A DNA stretch of 41,192 bases. Source: Gaiellales bacterium. GTDB lineage: Bacteria; Actinomycetota; Thermoleophilia; Gaiellales; JAICJC01. Position numbers and translations under genes: made by a program. Positions 1,508-10,034 of the stretch are shown here, one piece after another (the first letter of the stretch is position 1; each line of letters starts with the position of its first letter). A model generated the notes under the pieces. The model had not been told where the DNA came from and made no database searches. It saw only the letters and a program-made list of their open reading frames with translations. The stretch covers positions 1 through 41,192 of the forward strand of contig DATLLX010000083.1 of NCBI GenBank assembly GCA_035537595.1. The letters are read 5' to 3'.

Positions 1508-3481
1508 ATGGGCTCATTTCCCTCCCCGCGCCGCGGCCTGGCCGCCGCCTTCCTCGTGGTCTGCTTGGCGATCGGCGCCGGGGTGCCCGCGGCCCAGGCC
1601 GATGAGGGGACGTGGGCCACCGCCGCCAAGGTCTTGCCGCGGTTCGGGCTCGCGGCGGCGACGGCGGGGGACGGATCCATCTACGCGGTCGGCGGCGTGT
1701 CGGGGGTGAGCACCCTCAGCGACGCGCAGGTCTACGACCCGGCCGCGAAGGCGTGGGCGGCGCTGCCGTCGATGGCGCACGCCCGCTTCGGCGCGGCGGC
1801 CGCCGCCTCCGGTAACACCGTCTACGTGCTCGGCGGCAGCAACTCCGATGCCGGGTCGAGCCCCGACGAGGGCACGCTGGCCCTGGTCGAGAAGATCACC
1901 GGACCAGGCGGCGCCTGGGCTGCGTCGGCTCCGATGAGCAGTCGCCGCTACGGACTCGGCGCCGCCACCGATGCGCAGGGCCGGATCTACGCGGTGGGTG
2001 GCAACAACGGCAGCGTCGCCCTGAAGTCGGTCGAGCGCTATGACCCAGGTGCCGGCACCTGGACGTCGGTGGCTTCGATGACAACGGTGCGGGAATGGCC
2101 GGCGGTAGCCACCGGCAAGGACGGCCGCATCTACGCGATGAGCGGCAACGACGCCACCGGGCCGCTGGCCAGCGCCGAGGTGTACGACCCGGCCGCGAAC
2201 AGCTGGACGCCGATCGCGGCGATGGCAACCGCCCGCACGGCGGCCTCGGCGGCCCTCGCCCCGGACGGCCGGATCGTGGTCGCCGGCGGCACGGCGGCGG
2301 ACGGCAGCTTCCTGGCCACGGCGGAGGCCTACAACCCGACCACCAACACCTGGACGGCGGTCACGCCGATGCCCCGGCAGCGCGCCTACGGCGCCTCGGC
2401 ACAGGCTCCCGGCGGCCGGATCTTCGTGATCGGCGGCTCCACCGGGTCGGGAACGCTGGGCGCGGTCGACTCCCTGCAGCTGGTGGACACCACCAAGCCG
2501 GTGCTGAGCTCGGTCACGATCGACAACGGCAGCGCGTCCACGGCCGACGCGACGGCGACCGTCAAGCTGGTCGCCACCGATTCGCCCAGCGGGCCGGCGC
2601 TGATGCGGGTCTCGAGCAAGCCGCCGGTCAACTGCGCGACCGGCTGCCAGATGTCGCCGACGTTCACTCGCCAGAGCGCCTACAGCCCGTCGTTCACCTG
2701 GGACCTGACCGACCCCACCTGGGGCGGCGTTGCCGGTGACGGCACCAAGCAGGTGTGGGTGCAGGTGGTTGACGCTGCAGGCAACGCATCGGCGATCAGG
2801 GGCGACACGATCATGCTCGACAACACGACCCCTAGCATCGAGAGCGGTCCCGACACCCGGCTTAAGGCCGGTGGCACGCTGCAGCCGGGCACCGCACCGG
2901 TGGAAGCGTCGTGGACGGGGGCCGACGCCACCGGCGGCGTCACCCGCTACGGCGTCGAGTGGCACAACGGCGCCGAGAGCTTCTCGGCCGTGACCCGGTC
3001 GAATCCCGCCTCCTCCACCCTGCTGCGGCAGTATCCGCGCGGCTGCTCCTGCTCGCTTCGCGTGAACGCCGAGGATGCCGCCGGCCACGTCAGCCCGTGG
3101 GCGGTGGGCCCGGCGTTCGTGCCCACGGTGGTGCAGGAGCGCTGGTCGCTGGTCGTCTACCGGGGCCAGTGGACGGTCGCCACGAGCACCCGTCACGACG
3201 GCGGCCGCGACCGCTACGCGGCCGCGGCCGGCGCCTCCGCCCGCTTCGACTTCACCGGCCGGGGGATCGCCTGGGTCGCGCCGATGGGCTCCACCCGCGG
3301 CAAGGCCGATGTCTACCTCGACGGCGTCAAGGCCGCCACCGTCTCGCTCTCCGCAAGCTCTTCCCGCTACCGCCGTCTGGTCTTCGCCCGCAACTGGCCG
3401 GAGGCCGGCGCCCACCGCATCACGATCCGCACCACCAGCTCCAAGCGCGTCGACCTCGACGCCTTCGTCATCCTCAGCTGA
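1508..3481 (+). CDS. secreted Kelch-repeat (beta-propeller) protein with C-terminal Ig-like/carbohydrate-binding-like modules
   Basis: ATG at 1508. Signal peptide MGSFPSPRRGLAAAFLVVCLAIGAGVPAAQA/DE, where the RR may indicate Tat export. About six repeats of the type G.IYA.GG...........VE.YDP..N.W. The C-terminal roughly 330 aa is rich in beta-strand-like segments (VKLVATDSPSG, QVWVQVVDAAGNAS, RITIRTTSSKRVDLDAFVILS). Confidence 0.8.
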   Translation: MGSFPSPRRGLAAAFLVVCLAIGAGVPAAQADEGTWATAAKVLPRFGLAAATAGDGSIYAVGGVSGVSTLSDAQVYDPAAKAWAALPSMAHARFGAAAAASGNTVYVLGGSNSDAGSSPDEGTLALVEKITGPGGAWAASAPMSSRRYGLGAATDAQGRIYAVGGNNGSVALKSVERYDPGAGTWTSVASMTTVREWPAVATGKDGRIYAMSGNDATGPLASAEVYDPAANSWTPIAAMATARTAASAALAPDGRIVVAGGTAADGSFLATAEAYNPTTNTWTAVTPMPRQRAYGASAQAPGGRIFVIGGSTGSGTLGAVDSLQLVDTTKPVLSSVTIDNGSASTADATATVKLVATDSPSGPALMRVSSKPPVNCATGCQMSPTFTRQSAYSPSFTWDLTDPTWGGVAGDGTKQVWVQVVDAAGNASAIRGDTIMLDNTTPSIESGPDTRLKAGGTLQPGTAPVEASWTGADATGGVTRYGVEWHNGAESFSAVTRSNPASSTLLRQYPRGCSCSLRVNAEDAAGHVSPWAVGPAFVPTVVQERWSLVVYRGQWTVATSTRHDGGRDRYAAAAGASARFDFTGRGIAWVAPMGSTRGKADVYLDGVKAATVSLSASSSRYRRLVFARNWPEAGAHRITIRTTSSKRVDLDAFVILS

Positions 3482-3520
3482 CGCCCGTCTGGTTGCCCGG
3501 CCCGCCCTGACGACGGCCGC

Positions 3521-3553
3521 GGTGAACACAGGTGCCTGACACGTCCGTTCACC
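3521..3553. repeat. 33-bp imperfect palindromic repeat, copy 1 (GGTGAACACAGGTGCCTGACACGTCCGTTCACC)
   Basis: 12 of 16 arm positions are complementary. It shares the 22-mer GGTGARCAnARGTGYCWGACAC with copies at 3723, 3765 and 39569. It lies in the convergent intergenic region after the Kelch gene. Confidence 0.8.
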
Positions 3554-3574
3554 CGTGCCCAGGTGTCACGGGCG

Positions 3575-3631
3575 AATGGCCGCGAGGGCGGCGGCCATTT
3601 AGCGGAGCGAGTGAATGTCACTTGGCCGTCC
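3575..3631. repeat. degenerate copies of the ATTTGGCCG-type 23-bp repeat
   Basis: GGGCGGCGGCCATTTAGCGGAGCGAG (3586-3611) closely matches GGGCGGCGGCCATTTGGCCGAGCGAT at 8601-8626. It is flanked by AATGGCCG (3575) and CACTTGGCCG (3619) at about 21-23 nt spacing. Confidence 0.6.
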
Positions 3632-3722
3632 CGCGTTCTCCCTGCACCCGCCGTCGAACTGCCTGTCACGGCCGGACGCGCTCTGTCGCGCGGCTGTTGG
3701 CGAAGCGCGTCACACGGCCCTC

Positions 3723-3755
3723 GGTGAACAAAGGTGTCAGACACCCGTGTTCACC
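3723..3755. repeat. 33-bp imperfect palindromic repeat, copy 2 (GGTGAACAAAGGTGTCAGACACCCGTGTTCACC)
   Basis: 14 of 16 arm positions are complementary around a central A. It lies just downstream of the trpS stop and could double as a bidirectional terminator hairpin. Confidence 0.85.
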
Positions 3756-3764
3756 CTTTCGGCG

Positions 3765-3797
3765 GGTGAACAGAAGTGTCTGACACCGGTTGTTCGC
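3765..3797. repeat. 33-bp palindromic repeat, copy 3 (GGTGAACAGAAGTGTCTGACACCGGTTGTTCGC)
   Basis: Same left-arm 22-mer, with a right arm carrying a 1-nt indel. It is 9 nt from copy 2 and 12 nt from the trpS stop codon. Confidence 0.75.
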
Positions 3798-3808
3798 GGG
3801 CGGCGGGG

Positions 3809-4792
3809 CTAGCGGAAGCCCATGCGCTGCCGCATCAGCGACAGGGTGTCGTCGGCGACGGAGCGGGCGTGGGCGGCGCCCTGTTCGAGGATCGAGCGCA
3901 GCTCGGCGTCGTCGGTGCGGAGCTGCTGGTAGCGCTCGCGGACCGGGCGGAGCATCTCCACGACCGACTCGGCGACGTCGCCCTTGAACTGGCCGTAGCC
4001 GGCGCCGTCGTACTGGGCCTCGACCTGATCGGGGGTCTGCCCGGTGGCGATCGAGTGGATCTCGATCAGGTTGGCGATCCCCTCCTTGCCGTCGCCGCGG
4101 TGTACCTCGCGGCCGGAGTCGGTGACGGCCGAGCGGATCTTGCGGGCGACGACCTCGGGCGGGTCGTTCACGAGCACGGTGCCCTGCGGCGTGCCGCGCG
4201 TGGTCGACATCTTGCGGGTCGGGTCCTGCAGGTCCATGACCCGTCCGCCGGCGCTGGGGATGGCGGCCTCGGGCACGGTCAGCGTTTCGCCGAAGCGGGC
4301 GTTGAACCGCTGGGCGATGTTGCGGGCCAGCTCGAGGTGCTGGCGCTGGTCGTCGCCGACCGGCACGCGGTCGGTGCGGTAGAGCAGGATGTCGGCGGCC
4401 TGCAGCACCGGGTAGGTGAAGACGTCGACCGAGACCGACTCCTGGCCCTCGCTCTTTTCCTTGAACTGCGTCATCCGGCGCAGCTCGCCGAACGTGGCCA
4501 GGCCGCTGGCGCCCAGCAGCCAGGCGCCGTAGGCATGGGCGGCGACATGGCTCTGCACGAACAGGGTGCAGCGCTCGGGCTCGAGGCCGGCGCCGAGCAG
4601 CGTGGCGGCGGTGTCGAGCGTGTTCTCGTGCAGCGCGTCGACGTCGTAGGGAACGCTGATGGCGTGCAGGTCGACGATGCAGTAGAAGGCCTCGCCCAGG
4701 TCCTGGTCGGACACGTAATGGCGGATCGCGCCGATGTAGTTGCCGAGGTGCTTGCTGCCCGTCGGCTGGATGCCTGAGAAGACTCGTGCCAT
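3809..4792 (-). CDS. trpS: tryptophan--tRNA ligase
   Basis: The N-terminus MARVFSGIQPTGSKHLGNYIG is the class I HIGH-type motif region. A KMSTT (KMSKS-type) loop is present. Length is 327 aa. Confidence 0.95.
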   Translation of the reverse strand: MARVFSGIQPTGSKHLGNYIGAIRHYVSDQDLGEAFYCIVDLHAISVPYDVDALHENTLDTAATLLGAGLEPERCTLFVQSHVAAHAYGAWLLGASGLATFGELRRMTQFKEKSEGQESVSVDVFTYPVLQAADILLYRTDRVPVGDDQRQHLELARNIAQRFNARFGETLTVPEAAIPSAGGRVMDLQDPTRKMSTTRGTPQGTVLVNDPPEVVARKIRSAVTDSGREVHRGDGKEGIANLIEIHSIATGQTPDQVEAQYDGAGYGQFKGDVAESVVEMLRPVRERYQQLRTDDAELRSILEQGAAHARSVADDTLSLMRQRMGFR

Positions 4793-4801
4793 GAGACGGG
4801 C

Positions 4802-4807
4802 ACTTTA
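4802..4807 (-). promoter_or_regulatory. candidate -10 hexamer TAAAGT, 9 nt upstream of the trpS ATG
   Basis: The minus-strand sequence reads CGGTAAAGTgcccgtctcATG with no SD-like purine run. Confidence 0.25.
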
Positions 4808-4835
4808 CCGGGCCGGTGGCGCCACAACCCACCGG

Positions 4836-4841
4836 TAGACT
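4836..4841 (+). promoter_or_regulatory. candidate -10 hexamer TAGACT, 10 nt upstream of ATG 4852
   Basis: The sequence reads CCGGTAGACTggacgcagatATG with no SD. The region is divergent with trpS. Confidence 0.25.
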
Positions 4842-4851
4842 GGACGCAGAT

Positions 4852-6219
4852 ATGGCGACGTCTCCCCCCGCATGGTCTCCCGTCACCTGGCGCGAGCGCA
4901 CCGCGCTCCACCAGCCGGAGTGGCCCGACCCGGCCGCCGCGTCGGCGGTCACCGAGCGCCTGGCCGGTATGCCGCCGCTGGTGTTTGCCGGTGAGGCAAG
5001 ACAGCTGCGGGAATCGCTGGCCCAGGTCGCCGCCGGGCGGGCGTTCCTGCTCCAGGCCGGCGACTGCGCCGAGTCGTTCAACGACTTCTCGGCCATCAGC
5101 ATCCGGGAGAAGCTCAAGATCATCCTCCAGATGGCGGCGGTGCTGACCTATGGCTCGATGCTGCCGGTGGTCAAGCTGGGCCGGATCGCCGGCCAGTACA
5201 CCAAGCCCCGCTCGGCCGCCACGGAGATGGTGGACGGCGTCGAGGTGGCCACCTTCCGCGGCCACATGGTGCACGACGACACCCCGACCAGTGAGGGCAG
5301 GCGGTTCGACCCCGAGCGGATGGTGCAGGGCTACCACCACGCGGCGTCGACGCTGAACCTGTTGCGGGCGTTCACCAAGGGCGGGTTCGCCGACCTGACC
5401 AAGGTGCACCTGTGGAACCAGGAGTTCGTGGCCAGCTCGCCGGAGGGCCGCCGCTACGAGGTGATCGCGACCGAGATCGAGCGCGCGCTGCGCTTCATGG
5501 CCGCCTGCGGCATCGACCTCGAGCAGGAGCGTCAGCTGCACGAGGTCGACGTGTGGACGAGCCACGAGGGGCTGCTGCTCGACTACGAGCAGGCGCTCAC
5601 CCGCCGCGACTCGCTGACCGGCGACTGGTACGACTGCTCCGCCCACATGCTGTGGATCGGCGAGCGGACGCGGGCCGTCGACGGCGCCCACGTCGCGTTC
5701 TTCGCCGGCGTCCACAACCCTGTGGGCGTCAAGCTCGGCCCGGCGGCGACGCCGCAGGACGTGATCGATCTGTGCGAGCGCCTGAATCCCGACCGCATCC
5801 CGGGGCGGCTGACCCTGATCTCCCGGATGGGCGCCGAGCGCGTCCGCGAGCTGCTGCCCCCGCTGCTGGCGGCGGTGGCGGCCGCCGAGCATCCGGTGGT
5901 GTGGGTGTGCGACCCGATGCACGCCAACGTCTTCCGCACCCGGTCGGGCTACAAGACGCGCCGGTTCGAGGACATCATGGCCGAGATCGAGGGCTTCTTC
6001 GAGGCCTGCCGCGACCAGGCCGCATGGCCGGGCGGTGTGCACGTGGAGTTCACCGGCGAGCATGTCACCGAATGCGTCGGCGGCTCCGAGGCCGTGCTGG
6101 AAGACCAGCTCAACGTCAACTACTCCACGCTGTGCGATCCGCGCTTGAATGCGCGGCAGTCGCTCGACCTCGCGTTCCGCGTTGCGGAGCTGATGCGAGG
6201 CGCGGCCCGGTCGCTGTGA
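4852..6219 (+). CDS. aroG: class II 3-deoxy-7-phosphoheptulonate (DAHP) synthase
   Basis: About 455 aa with the class II hallmark N-terminus (W...W......QP.WPD, FLLQAGDCAESF), then KPRS and CDPMHAN. The start is ambiguous between ATG 4852 (preferred) and GTG 4816. Confidence 0.9.
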   Translation: MATSPPAWSPVTWRERTALHQPEWPDPAAASAVTERLAGMPPLVFAGEARQLRESLAQVAAGRAFLLQAGDCAESFNDFSAISIREKLKIILQMAAVLTYGSMLPVVKLGRIAGQYTKPRSAATEMVDGVEVATFRGHMVHDDTPTSEGRRFDPERMVQGYHHAASTLNLLRAFTKGGFADLTKVHLWNQEFVASSPEGRRYEVIATEIERALRFMAACGIDLEQERQLHEVDVWTSHEGLLLDYEQALTRRDSLTGDWYDCSAHMLWIGERTRAVDGAHVAFFAGVHNPVGVKLGPAATPQDVIDLCERLNPDRIPGRLTLISRMGAERVRELLPPLLAAVAAAEHPVVWVCDPMHANVFRTRSGYKTRRFEDIMAEIEGFFEACRDQAAWPGGVHVEFTGEHVTECVGGSEAVLEDQLNVNYSTLCDPRLNARQSLDLAFRVAELMRGAARSL

Positions 6220-7307
6220 ACCTGGCGATCGTGGGACTGGGCCTGATCGGGGGATCGATCGGGCTGGCGGCGGCGAGTCGAGGCGATCGGGTGATCGGCT
6301 ACGACTCCGACCCGGAAGCGGAGCGGGTCGCGCTCGATCGCGGTGCCGCCGCCCAGGTCAGCGATTCGGTGGCGGCGGCTGTCGCGAATGCAGAGCTGGC
6401 GATCGTCTGCGGGCCGGTGGCCGAGCTCCCGACCCTGGTGCGGGCGGCGCTGGACTCCGCGCCCGCCGGCTGCGTGGTGTCGGACGTGGGGTCGACCAAG
6501 GGCCGGCTGGTGCACTCGGTGGGAGACGAGCCGCGGTTCGTGGCCGGGCACCCGGTCTGCGGCTCGGAGGCGCGGGGGGTGGCGAACGCCCGCGCTGACC
6601 TGTTCGCCGAGGCCACGTGGTTCATCACACCCACCGCGCGTACCGATCCAGAGGCCCACCGCCGGCTGCACGGCTTCGTCGCCTCGCTGGGGGCGCGTCC
6701 CGTGGCGATCGACCCGGAGGCCCACGACCGGCTGGTCGGACTGACCAGCCACCTGCCCCACGCCATCGCCAACGTGCTGATCAACCAGGCCGGCGCGGGC
6801 CGGGTCGACGGCCACGACCCGCTGGGCGCGGTCGGCGGCTCGTTTCGCGACATGACCCGGGTGGCGGGCGCCAACCCGCGGATCTGGGTCGACATCTTTC
6901 TCGACAACCGCGAGGCGCTGCTGGACGGGCTGCGCGAGACCGGCCGCCGGCTGGACGAGCTGACGCGTGCTCTGGAGCGCGAAGACGCCGGGTTCGTGGC
7001 CCGCTGGATCGCGGAGGCGTCCGGCAACCGGCGGCGGTTGCTGGAGACCGCCTATCCGGCACGCGCGGAGGAGCTGTTCCGGGTGCGGGTGCGAGTGCCC
7101 GACCGGCCCGGGGTGCTGTCGGGGATCACCCAGGCGCTGGGCGCCGAGGGCATCAACATCGAGGACTTCGAGCTCCACCACCTGTCCGCCGAGCGCGGTG
7201 GGACGGCGGTGGTGCTCGTCGCCGGCCGGGCCGAGGCCGAGCGCGCGGTGGCGCTGCTCGATGCCCAGGGCTACGGCGCCATCGCCACTCCCGCGGTCGA
7301 TGACTGA
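6216..7307 (+). CDS. tyrA: prephenate dehydrogenase with C-terminal ACT domain
   Basis: GTG 6216 overlaps the DAHP synthase stop (GTGA). Rossmann motif IVGLGLIGGS, then SDVGSTK and HPVCGSE. ACT-like tail RVRVPDRPGVLSGITQALGAEGINIEDF. Confidence 0.9.
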   Translation: MNLAIVGLGLIGGSIGLAAASRGDRVIGYDSDPEAERVALDRGAAAQVSDSVAAAVANAELAIVCGPVAELPTLVRAALDSAPAGCVVSDVGSTKGRLVHSVGDEPRFVAGHPVCGSEARGVANARADLFAEATWFITPTARTDPEAHRRLHGFVASLGARPVAIDPEAHDRLVGLTSHLPHAIANVLINQAGAGRVDGHDPLGAVGGSFRDMTRVAGANPRIWVDIFLDNREALLDGLRETGRRLDELTRALEREDAGFVARWIAEASGNRRRLLETAYPARAEELFRVRVRVPDRPGVLSGITQALGAEGINIEDFELHHLSAERGGTAVVLVAGRAEAERAVALLDAQGYGAIATPAVDD

Positions 7308-8601
7308 TCCGGCCGAGCTGCTGGTGCGCCCGGCGGGAGCGCTGGTCGGCGAGCTGACCGTGCCCGGCGACAAGTCGATCAGCCACCGGGCGGTGATGGT
7401 CGGCGCGCTGAGCGAGGAGCGGGTGGTGGTCACCGGGTTCGGCGCGTCGGCGGACACCCTGGCCACGGTCGACGCGTTCCGCCGCCTGGGCGTCGAGATC
7501 GAGCGGCCCGATTCCGAGACGCTGGTCATCCATGGCGTCGGCATGCGCGGGCTGCAGCCGCCCGACCGGCCGATCGACGTGGGCAACGCCGGCACCCTGA
7601 TGCGCATCCTGCCGGGGATCCTCGCCGGCCAGTCGGGAACCTTCGTCGTGGACGGCGACGACAGCATCCGCAGCCGGCCGATGGAGCGGATCGCGACGCC
7701 GCTCTCCGAGATGGGCGTGCGCGTCGAGACCACGTCGGGAACGCCGCCGGTGACCGTCCACGCCACCGGCGAGGTGCGACCGGTGTCCTACCGGCTGCCG
7801 GTGGCCTCGGCCCAGGTCAAGTCGGCCGTGCTGTTCGCCGGGCTGTTCACCGAGGTCGGCGTGACCACCGTGGAGGAGCCGATCCCCACCCGCGACCACA
7901 CCGAGCGGATGCTGCAGCGGGCCGGCGTGCCGGTCGACAGGCGACCCGGCAGGGTGTCGGTCTCGCCTGTGCGGGAGCTCGTCATCCCCGAGATCCCGGT
8001 GCCCGGCGACTTCTCCTCGGCCGCCCCGTTCATCGCCGCGGCGACGGTGCTGCAGGGCTCCAACCTGACCCTGCGCGGCATCGACATCAATCCCACCCGC
8101 ACCGGCATGCTGACGGTGCTGGAGAGGATGGGCGCCCGGGTGGGCCTGTTCGGCAGACGGTGGGCGGCCGGCGAGCCGGTGGCCGACATCGAGGTGCGGG
8201 CCGCGGAGCTGGTGGCCACCGAGGTCGAGCCCGAGCTCGTCCCCAGCCTGATCGACGAGCTGCCGCTGGTAGTGCTGGCGGCCAGCTTCGCCCGCGGCAC
8301 CACGGTGATCCGCGGTGCCGGCGAGCTGCGGGTGAAGGAGTCCGACCGGATCGAGAGCGTCGTCCGCGCCATGACCACCGTCGGCGCCCACGTCCGGGCG
8401 TTGGAGGACGGCTTCGAGGTCAAGGGCGTGCCCCATCGCCTGCGCGGCGGCCGGGTGGACGCCGCCGGCGACCACCGGATCGCGATGCTGGGCGCCATCG
8501 CCGGAGCCTGCTCGCAGCAGGGCGTCACCGTCGAGGGCGCCGAGGTGGTCGGCGTCAGCTTCCCCGACTTCGCCGAGCGGCTGGCCGCGGTCAGCGCGTA
8601 G
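7300..8601 (+). CDS. aroA: 3-phosphoshikimate 1-carboxyvinyltransferase (EPSP synthase)
   Basis: ATG 7300 overlaps the tyrA stop by 8 nt. Motifs LTVPGDKSISHRAVM, VGNAGTLMRIL, RVKESDRI and GDHRIAM are present. Confidence 0.95.
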   Translation: MTDPAELLVRPAGALVGELTVPGDKSISHRAVMVGALSEERVVVTGFGASADTLATVDAFRRLGVEIERPDSETLVIHGVGMRGLQPPDRPIDVGNAGTLMRILPGILAGQSGTFVVDGDDSIRSRPMERIATPLSEMGVRVETTSGTPPVTVHATGEVRPVSYRLPVASAQVKSAVLFAGLFTEVGVTTVEEPIPTRDHTERMLQRAGVPVDRRPGRVSVSPVRELVIPEIPVPGDFSSAAPFIAAATVLQGSNLTLRGIDINPTRTGMLTVLERMGARVGLFGRRWAAGEPVADIEVRAAELVATEVEPELVPSLIDELPLVVLAASFARGTTVIRGAGELRVKESDRIESVVRAMTTVGAHVRALEDGFEVKGVPHRLRGGRVDAAGDHRIAMLGAIAGACSQQGVTVEGAEVVGVSFPDFAERLAAVSA

Positions 8602-8607
8602 GGCGGC

Positions 8608-8699
8608 GGCCATTTGGCCGAGCGATCGTCGGCCATTTGGCCGGGTGGTCGTTGGCCATCTGGCCGAGCCGACGCCCGTCATTTGGCCGCCGGTAGGAT
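8608..8699. repeat. tandem array of four 23-bp units (GGCCATTTGGCCGAGCGATCGTC / GGCCATTTGGCCGGGTGGTCGTT / GGCCATCTGGCCGAGCCGACGCC / CGTCATTTGGCCGCCGG...)
   Basis: Units start at 8608, 8631, 8654 and 8677, in an exact 23-nt register. Each carries the inverted-repeat core GGCCA-TT-TGGCC. The array fills the gap between the aroA stop and the RBS (AGGA 8695-8698) of the next gene. Confidence 0.85.
8615..8638 (+). terminator. possible weak terminator hairpin after aroA (UGGCCGA-gcgaucg-UCGGCCA followed by UUU)
   Basis: A 7-bp stem (8615-8621 paired with 8629-8635), a 7-nt loop, then TTT at 8636-8638. It is formed by adjacent repeat units. The U-tract is short. Confidence 0.25.
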
Positions 8700-8705
8700 G
8701 GCGCC

Positions 8706-9392
8706 ATGATCGGCGTCATCGGCGACCACGATCCGGCGAACCGCACGCACGCCACGCTGGACGAGAGCCTGGCCGCCGCCGGAGCGGAGTGGCAGTGGGT
8801 GGCGACCGATGCCGTCCCGCCGGCGGACGAGCTGGAGCGGCGGTTCGGCGGGCTGTGGATCGCCCCGGCCAGCCCGTACCGCAGCATGGACGGCGCCCTC
8901 GGTGCGATCACGGCGGCCCGCGAGCGCGGGATCCCGCTGGTCGGTACCTGAGGCGGCTTCCAGCACGTACTGGTCGAGTACGCACGCAACGTCATGGGAG
9001 TCACGGAGGCCGAGCACGCGGAGACGAGCCCCGACGCGGCGGAGCTGGTCGTCTCGTCGCTGTCCTGCTCCCTGGTCGGGCATCAAGCAACGGTGCGGCT
9101 GCTGCCGGGCACGAAGGCCGCGGCCCTGTACGGCGCCGACCGCGCGGACGAGGACTACTTCTGCAACTACGGCCTGAACCCGGAGTACCGGCCGCGTCTG
9201 GAGGCCGTGGGGCTGCGTGTGAGCGGTGTCGACGACGACGGCGAGGTGCGGGTGGTCGAGCTCGACAGCCATCCGTTCTACGTCGCGACCCTCTACTGCT
9301 TCCAGACCCGGTCGCTCAGCGGACGGCCCCACCCGCTGGTCGCCGGGTTCGTCGCGGCGGCCTCGGCTGGTAAAGTCTCAACGCACGGTTGA
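8706..9392 (+). CDS. class I glutamine-amidotransferase-like protein (CTP synthase C-terminal-domain-related), probable selenoprotein with Sec encoded by TGA 8949-8951
   Basis: Track ORFs 8706..8951 and 8994..9392 are in the same frame, separated only by one TGA. Read through, the sequence ...ARERGIPLVGT-U-GGFQHVLVEYARNV... aligns with the PyrG GATase nucleophile segment [23 protein letters not shown]. The TGA therefore sits exactly at the catalytic Cys. The C-terminus HPFYVATLYCFQ...HPLVAGFVAAA matches HPWFVACQFHPEF...HPLFAGFVKAA. Confidence 0.7.
8966..8982 (+). promoter_or_regulatory. SECIS-like hairpin (CGUACU-GGUCG-AGUACG) downstream of the in-frame UGA
   Basis: A 6-bp stem with an apical loop GGUCG starting 21 nt after the UGA. 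The GGUC apical loop and the distance are like the E. coli fdhF SECIS upper stem-loop as I recall it. The stem is short. Confidence 0.4.
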
Positions 9393-9435
9393 GGGTTAAA
9401 CTTCGGCGGGCTGCCTCGATCAGCACTTGAGGGTT
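9389..9435 (+). repeat. direct repeat TTGAGGGTT x2 (9389-9397 and 9427-9435)
   Basis: Exact 9-mers 38 nt apart. The first overlaps the stop codon of the GATase-like gene and the second lies upstream of cmk. Confidence 0.6.
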
Positions 9436-9443
9436 CGGCCCAG

Positions 9444-9449
9444 TACGCT
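9444..9449 (+). promoter_or_regulatory. candidate -10 hexamer TACGCT, 9 nt upstream of the cmk ATG
   Basis: The sequence reads CAGTACGCTtcgcccgccATG with no SD. The hexamer is identical to that at 1495-1500. Confidence 0.25.
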
Positions 9450-9458
9450 TCGCCCGCC

Positions 9459-10034
9459 ATGGTGATCACGATCGACGGTCCCGCCGGGTCGGGCAAGAGC
9501 ACGGTCGCTCGGCTGGTCGCCGACCGGCTGGGCCTGCGCTACGTGGACACGGGCGCGATGTACCGCGAGCTCACCGCTGCCGCCCTGGCCACGGGCGTCT
9601 CACTGAACGACGGCGATCAGCTGGCGGCGCTGGTCGGACGGCCGGCGCCCCCCGGCGCCGACCTGCGGGCGGAGGTGATCTCCCGCAACGTCAGCGCCGC
9701 CTCCCGGCACCCGCAGGTGCGAGCGCGGATGCGGGCTCGCCAGCGCGAGCTGGCATCCGACGCAGTCCTGGAGGGGCGGGACACCGGCTCGGTGGTCTGG
9801 CCGGCGGCGGAGGTCAAGGTGTACCTGGTGGCGAACGGGCGGGTGCGCGCCGAGCGGCGGGCGGTGCAGCTGGGGCTGCCGATCGAGGCGGTGGAGCAGA
9901 CGATCGCCGACCGCGACGACATGGACAGCGCTCAGCTGGCGCCGGCCCCGGACGCCGTGGTGGTCGACACCAGCGACCTCACCATCGACCAGGTGGTCGA
10001 CCGGATCGTCGACATGGCCCGGGCCGCCGCATGA
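9459..10034 (+). CDS. cmk: (d)CMP kinase
   Basis: P-loop ITIDGPAGSGKST followed by YVDTGAMYR. Length is 191 aa. Confidence 0.92.
   Translation: MVITIDGPAGSGKSTVARLVADRLGLRYVDTGAMYRELTAAALATGVSLNDGDQLAALVGRPAPPGADLRAEVISRNVSAASRHPQVRARMRARQRELASDAVLEGRDTGSVVWPAAEVKVYLVANGRVRAERRAVQLGLPIEAVEQTIADRDDMDSAQLAPAPDAVVVDTSDLTIDQVVDRIVDMARAAA

Follow-up and report, generated by a model that had tools for sequence, protein, structure and literature searches.

The contig DATLLX010000083.1 of a Gaiellales bacterium (assembly GCA_035537595.1), whose full length of 41,192 nucleotides is called the window here, carries on its forward strand a gene (8706..9392) for a 228-residue, stand-alone protein that resembles the glutamine amidotransferase (GATase) domain of CTP synthase (PyrG) and is encoded with one in-frame TGA that is read through. 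The gene is a selenocysteine (Sec) member of the NCBIfam family NF004836, whose proteins are stand-alone paralogues of the glutaminase domain in CTP synthase. The account of this protein that we consider probable has three parts: the family as a whole has lost the Cys-His-Glu triad of its PyrG relatives, the cysteine that occupies the former histidine site in the window protein (Cys198) is peculiar to one small clade, and two other cysteines, Cys121 and Cys153, are likelier partners for the Sec.

The assignment to NF004836 comes from one continuous match of 291.2 bits (cut-off, 260), which covers residues 2-219 of the protein and positions 3-227 of the 228 in the profile. A profile search of the genome contigs with the same model returned 283.8 bits with one TGA inside the match. 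The reading frame starts at the ATG at 8706, which has an AGGA upstream, crosses the TGA at 8949-8951, and closes at the next stop, the TGA at 9390-9392. The internal TGA is codon 82 and would place a Sec in the nucleophile elbow G-T-U-G-G-F-Q-H. The general models describe the protein less well: Pfam GATase (PF00117) gives 21.7 bits, with a gathering threshold of 22.8, and matches residues 44-108 alone, and the models for genuine PyrG give about 100 bits, far under their cut-offs. A full-length genuine PyrG is present elsewhere in the same genome, on contig C253.

Residues of the window protein were related to those of PyrG by alignment. In a phmmer search against all PDB chains, CTP synthases were the sole matches, the top one being 3nva with an E value of 7e-25. 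The alignment sets GT-U82-GGFQ on the PyrG nucleophile elbow, with U82 on the nucleophile cysteine, and sets 'ATLYCFQTRS' opposite 'ATQAHPEFKS' in 3nva and 'GTQAHPELKS' in the M. tuberculosis enzyme, 4zdk. Counting along the 4zdk alignment, U82 corresponds to Cys393, Cys198 (TGC, 9297..9299) to His524, and Gln200 (CAG, 9303..9305) to Glu526. These three residues are the triad of M. tuberculosis PyrG, as was shown crystallographically by a DON (6-diazo-5-oxo-L-norleucine) adduct (PMC4521081). In the same phmmer alignment, 'EDYFCNYG' lies opposite PyrG 'ERHRHRYE'. An AlphaFold2 model built from 119 homologues has a predicted local distance difference test (pLDDT) score of 94.5 and a predicted template modeling (pTM) score of 0.92. 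Foldseek aligns it to the GATase domains of CTP synthases, among them 4ZDK, 3NVA from S. solfataricus, and 1VCO from T. thermophilus, with TM scores of 0.85-0.89 at about 30% sequence identity. Judged by this model, the class I GATase fold is conserved, and as homologues of the triad Cys and His in PyrG, residues 82 and 198 would be expected to be close in space. The initial annotation of this gene had proposed a Sec at the nucleophile position, Cys198 and Gln200 in the His and Glu columns of the triad, an HRHRYE-like block changed to DYFCNYG, and, as a premise, a conserved fold, and in all of these respects it agrees with the alignments and the model.

The state of the triad across the family was read from two sets of sequences. 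The first comprises 81 sequences from many phyla, namely 80 loci from one-genome-per-species contigs plus the window, with TGA kept as U; the second comprises 119 database proteins, all of them Cys forms, since gene callers truncate Sec forms. At column 82, the nucleophile, the 81 loci have Cys in 62 and Sec in 19 (TGC in 44, TGT in 18, and TGA in 19). At column 198, the place of the triad His, they have Val in 39, Gln in 22, Leu in 17, Cys in 2, and Ile in 1, and His in none; the 119 proteins have 100 Val, 9 Leu, 5 Cys, and 5 Gln, again with no His. Gln is the norm at column 200, the place of the triad Glu, where it is found in 60 loci (Glu in the other 21) and in 112 proteins (Glu in 5 and Met in 2). 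Loss of the triad His is an old, family-wide feature and is not a rewiring specific to the window gene, as the initial annotation had taken it to be. The family tree separates a Q-P-E clade, in which His is replaced by Gln, Glu is kept, and all members have Cys82, from a V/L/C-x-Q clade that holds every Sec form. At least three changes between Cys and Sec are required by the tree, and at least two of them are forced by well-supported branches. The motifs suggest, without proving it, an order that runs from HPE in PyrG through QPE, QPQ, V/LPQ, and VFQ to CFQ.

Within this picture, Cys198 is confined to a single tight clade with 99% support, formed by the five or six sequences that read 'CFQ'. 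The window protein differs from the rest of NF004836 in belonging to this small, Thermoleophilia-like soil clade, with 'CFQ' instead of V/L-P-Q or Q-P-E. Codon 82 of the clade is TGA in the window, in L017 (a Thermoleophilia MAG, or metagenome-assembled genome, with 70% identity), and in L115, and it is TGC in L114 (protein P0004), as confirmed in the DNA. Across the 19 Sec members among the 81 loci, column 198 is mostly Leu (15), with two Val and two Cys, the latter being the window and L017. Because the Sec members mostly carry Leu or Val and the clade mixes Cys82 with Sec82, Cys198 neither tracks Sec82 nor marks the family. It stands in for the hydrophobic Val or Leu that usually fills the vacated His site, a substitution particular to this clade, and is not a conserved partner of Sec82. 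The public gene call for L115 (a jgi 3300079549 contig, gene 847-1527) reads the Sec TGA as Trp in a code 4-like manner, giving 'ATWGGFQH', an artefact of annotation by which a further CFQ-clade Sec member is concealed.

Further parts of the PyrG glutaminase site have also changed. The window protein has no synthase domain, has Sec for the nucleophile Cys, and has Cys and Gln for the triad His and Glu. In place of the PGGFG oxyanion strand, the alignment shows A-P-A-S-P-Y, in a register that is uncertain by one residue. The form of this strand in the family is P-(G/A)-S-P-Y, in which Pro54, Pro57, and Tyr58 are invariant or nearly so (Pro57 and Tyr58 in 119/119 proteins). In E. coli CTP synthase, the substitution G352P by itself abolishes labelling of Cys379 by DON. 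The block RHRHRYE has become DYFCNYG, and the L13/GGTMRLG loop is shortened to CSLVGHQATVRL. The GTP-binding cleft of the E. coli enzyme is directly adjacent to the glutaminase site and is lined by Arg468, Arg470, and the loop 429-440 (PMC9138612). The window protein and PyrG have in common the nucleophile elbow, the HP(F/W)F strand, a Gln four residues past the nucleophile, and two Glu residues, one from NSTEF and the other from ERHRHRYE; by residue number, Gln86, Glu106, Glu149, Glu185, and His189 are shared.

A different set of residues is conserved in the family. Cys121 (TGC, 9066..9068) and Cys153 (TGC, 9162..9164) are present in 81/81 loci and 119/119 proteins, as are Trp31, Gln86, and Glu149. 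His15, His87, His104, Glu106, and Glu185 are found in all 119 proteins and in 78-80 of the 81 loci. Among them, His87 (8964..8966), where PyrG has an aliphatic residue, is kept in 80 loci, and His104 and Glu106 of the 'DADHAET' block (His104-Ala-Glu106, 9015..9023) are kept in 78 and 79, respectively, with Glu106 matching PyrG 'NSTEF'. When compared with PyrG, His15, Trp31, His87, His104, Cys121, and Cys153 are specific to the family. Cys121 sits just before the site of the PyrG L13/GGTMRLG loop, and Cys153 falls on the second His of 'RHRHRYE', between the two GTP-cleft arginines. By homology with the E. coli cleft elements, loop 429-440 and Arg468/Arg470, these two cysteines would be expected to line the cleft next to residue 82. 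The candidate partners of the Sec are corrected by this comparison to the invariant Cys121 and Cys153, in place of the clade-level Cys198.

Insertion of Sec at the TGA at 8949-8951 is very likely, and the genome, a MAG of 2.35 Mb that is 73% complete, appears able to decode Sec. On contig C167 (8863-11197), selA (512 bits) is adjacent to selB (296 bits), both scoring over curated cut-offs and selB reaching the contig end, and a C-terminal fragment alone of selD (106 bits) is found at the start edge of contig C285. A formate dehydrogenase alpha-like gene on contig C194 (about 3000-6700, reverse strand) has an in-frame TGA in the classic context ...ENQARIUHSSTVPGL... and is the probable second selenoprotein of the MAG. 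Bacterial Sec insertion sequence (SECIS) elements are stem-loops placed shortly 3' of the UGA with a G in the apical loop. The candidate in the window (8963..8987) is a modest hairpin (-8.6 kcal/mol), with a 6-bp stem (8966-8971/8977-8982) that begins 15 nt past the TGA, the loop GGUCG (8972-8976), and outer pairs 8963/8987 and 8964/8986. A hairpin is found at the same offset in 19/19 TGA loci, where it is formed from differing sequences in differing lineages, and the CFQ-clade Sec locus L115 has the same hairpin as the window. The mean folding free energy is -11.7 kcal/mol for Sec loci (n = 19) versus -5.5 kcal/mol for Cys loci (n = 62) and -7.2 kcal/mol for GC-matched Cys loci (Mann-Whitney p = 2e-5, for loci that are phylogenetically non-independent). 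The stretch 8867-9400 or more, which includes the TGA and the TGC of Cys198, recurs with 0 differences in contigs of four separate metagenome runs from soil or rhizosphere (four studies, 2018-2025), one of which may be the source of the MAG itself. Because these codons are identical in separate metagenome contigs, they are not an assembly error. Sec decoding is credible because selA, selB, the selD fragment, the Sec-type formate dehydrogenase, the hairpin, and the recurrence of the TGA in independent metagenomes are found together. Among the tRNA candidates, the matches to Rfam RF01852 were rejected as tRNA-Ser, and the ARAGORN 'tRNA-Ser(aga)' at C167 2392-2478 was rejected as a terminator-like hairpin that is not a tRNA.

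A mechanism can be proposed from the residues that the family has kept, lost, and gained. NF004836 has kept the GATase fold, the nucleophile elbow with Cys or Sec, Gln86, Glu106, and Glu149. The catalytic His is gone, as is the Glu in most members, and neither the PGGFG oxyanion strand nor the motifs RHRHRYE and GGTMRLG of the GTP cleft remain; the invariant Cys121, Cys153, His15, Trp31, His87, and His104 have been gained. Glutamine hydrolysis by the canonical mechanism would not be expected of such a protein. Residue 82 may serve as a His-independent nucleophile or as a redox centre, and the absence of a general base fits a Sec at this position because a selenol is deprotonated at neutral pH. 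Cys121 and Cys153 could be resolving or relay thiols, or ligands. Here the analogy is with MsrA, which has natural Sec forms, and with thioredoxin-coupled ArsC, both of which are triple-cysteine redox relays. The likeness lies in one attacking Cys or Sec with two further conserved cysteines and is one of function; the folds are unrelated, the comparison serves as a hypothesis with no claim of membership, and disulfides of Cys121 or Cys153 with residue 82 are only putative. On this analogy, a redox, relay, or ligand mechanism that involves Cys121 and Cys153 is a tentative proposal, to which we give somewhat less than an even chance. Four separate parts of the glutaminase are gone, the nucleophile is retained, and Sec has appeared in several lineages. 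A fuller version, which we put forward as possible but rather doubtful, is that NF004836 is a non-glutaminase, His-less enzyme of GATase fold with a new centre made of Cys/Sec82, Cys121, and Cys153 together with His87, His104, and Glu106. Its chemistry would be thiol/selenol redox catalysis or the transfer of metals or groups, possibly on a gamma-glutamyl-like substrate, and in the CFQ clade Cys198, as a fourth thiol next to Sec82, would add a protective or resolving selenenylsulfide.

Several observations weigh against our account of the family and of this gene. Neither ARAGORN nor Rfam RF01852 recovered a tRNA-Sec gene (selC) from the MAG, which is 73% complete. The SECIS-like hairpin of the window is also present in the CFQ-clade Cys form, L114; it is a weak discriminator within the clade, and its use to tell Sec from Cys there was rejected. 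The gene neighbourhood gives no functional hint: all-against-all clustering of open reading frames (ORFs) at the 81 loci found no conserved neighbourhood beyond lineage-local synteny, with an ABC-F ATPase at 12 loci as the best cluster and two other clusters that are alternative frames of the gene itself. Lastly, Gln86 and Glu106, which we take to be glutamine-binding positions in PyrG, are retained along with the invariant His87 and His104, and with these residues a glutaminase or gamma-glutamyl hydrolase whose general base has moved is conceivable.

The last of these points is the core of an alternative that we judge unlikely, in which members of the family still hydrolyse glutamine or gamma-glutamyl amides, or serve an undescribed partner as its amidotransferase subunit, with His104 or His87 as the relocated base. 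The elbow, Gln86, Glu106, Glu149, and His189 are common to PyrG, both histidines are invariant, and members of the family are named glutamine amidotransferase or CTP synthase in two papers (PMC12013277, PMC13188914) and in JGI annotations. However, the triad His is gone in 200/200 sequences examined and the Glu in most, and the PGGFG strand has given way to a form with invariant prolines, at a site where a single proline, G352P, is enough to abolish DON labelling in E. coli. The arginines of RHRHRYE are gone as well, no synthase-like neighbour is conserved, and the Pfam GATase score is under the gathering threshold. To our knowledge, natural Sec is almost confined to redox enzymes, which also argues against a hydrolase. 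Because the triad is absent and both the PGGFG strand and the RHRHRYE block are replaced, a conventional glutaminase is very unlikely. The initial annotation had reached the same view and had described the protein as a GATase scaffold repurposed for redox chemistry; the loss of canonical glutamine hydrolysis is well supported, but the choice of Cys198 as the redox partner is not.

That choice amounts to a second alternative, a Sec82-Cys198 selenenylsulfide redox couple that would be the functional reason for a Cys at the His position, the clade having evolved a Sec-Cys-Gln centre. We regard it as improbable. Cys198 is exactly in the His column and the fold is conserved, so that it would be expected within a few angstroms of U82, and it is kept in 6/6 known members of the CFQ clade (66-76% identity) and in a 90%-identical strain variant in metagenomes. 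There are also signs of an interaction between the two positions in independent Sec lineages, where residue 198 tends away from the Val of the Cys forms. In the V/L/C-x-Q clade, the Cys82 forms have Val in 37, Leu in 2, Ile in 1, and Gln in 1, versus Leu in 15, Cys in 2, and Val in 2 for the Sec forms, and the isolated Sec member L048 has Leu198 inside an otherwise Val clade. It is possible that position 198 responds to residue 82, which fits spatial contact or packing on the nucleophile; on the tree this amounts to 3-4 independent events and 2-3 independent pairs, too few for statistics. Against a dedicated couple, position 198 is Leu or Val in 17 of the 19 Sec members, the clade itself includes Cys82/Cys198 members, and Cys is a common conservative substitute for a buried Val. 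Moreover, the cysteines that are invariant are Cys121 and Cys153. The initial annotation had presented the Sec-Cys-Gln triad and its selenenylsulfide as the design of the protein, and this is not upheld by the family, in which U/C82 and Cys198 do not co-vary.

The remaining alternative, that translation ends at the TGA and the locus is a pseudogene or two separate small ORFs, agrees with the missing tRNA-Sec and with the splitting of the ORF by gene callers (the database holds a 132-aa C-terminal piece alone, P0006), but we reject it as highly improbable, given an unbroken family match across the TGA with invariant residues intact on both sides, 18 other genomes, and L115 too, that have TGA at this codon, the presence of selA, selB, selD, and a Sec-type formate dehydrogenase, and identical sequence in several independent metagenomes.

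With the gene placed as a Sec member of a family that has lost its triad, its relation to earlier work can be stated. Its publication as a predicted selenoprotein family dates from 2025-2026: deep-Sep first made the prediction for Desulfosediminicola ganghwensis and named the protein 'glutamine amidotransferase (COG0504, PyrG)' (PMC12013277), and a 2026 review of the prokaryotic selenoproteome lists it as a predicted selenoprotein with the motif GxUxG (PMC13188914). The absent triad goes unmentioned in both papers. The window protein shares with the family the GxUxG Sec motif at the elbow, the stand-alone size of about 228 aa, the absence of the His, and the presence of Cys121 and Cys153. For this gene, the outcome is an annotation as a Sec-containing NF004836 member and no new system. 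The initial annotation had anticipated a functionally uncharacterised activity; the activity is indeed uncharacterised, but the family was already catalogued in Sec and Cys forms (NF004836, PMC12013277, PMC13188914). No paper on a Sec-containing GATase triad was found in the literature searched, and what is new relative to that literature is a whole family without the triad His and with two invariant cysteines. The published label 'glutamine amidotransferase' is probably wrong for NF004836. More than 5,000 database proteins match the family, which is found in soil Actinomycetota, Rokubacteria/Methylomirabilota, Acidobacteriota, Verrucomicrobiota, Paenibacillus, Nitrospira, and others. A Sec at the elbow of a GATase fold that has no His, Glu, or oxyanion strand points to a large, widespread, and uncharacterised enzyme family.

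In the genome, the ORF stands alone between aroA on one side and cmk on the other. Relatives from the same taxonomic family (L102-L113) have Cys paralogues at 42-55% identity, of the VFQ, QPE, and QPQ types, none of them flanked by aroA and cmk, and the sequences nearest to the window gene, at 66-76% identity, were found in other soil metagenomes. The gene may thus have been relocated or acquired laterally. At least 20 metagenome runs, from soil or rhizosphere and spread over 11 studies (2017-2025), contain 87-96% of the words sampled from the stretch 8600-9500, and the host organism appears to be widespread in soils. The spacer between aroA and the selenoprotein gene is filled by a tandem array (8607-8689) with a period of 23, 3.6 copies, and the consensus CGGCCATTTGGCCGAGCGATCGT, each 23-nt unit containing GGCCA-TT-TGGCC with 5-bp inverted arms. 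It may serve as an operator array or represent a small repeat element, and the genome (2.35 Mb) has 7 occurrences of the 12-mer GGCCAWWTGGCC versus about 1 expected.

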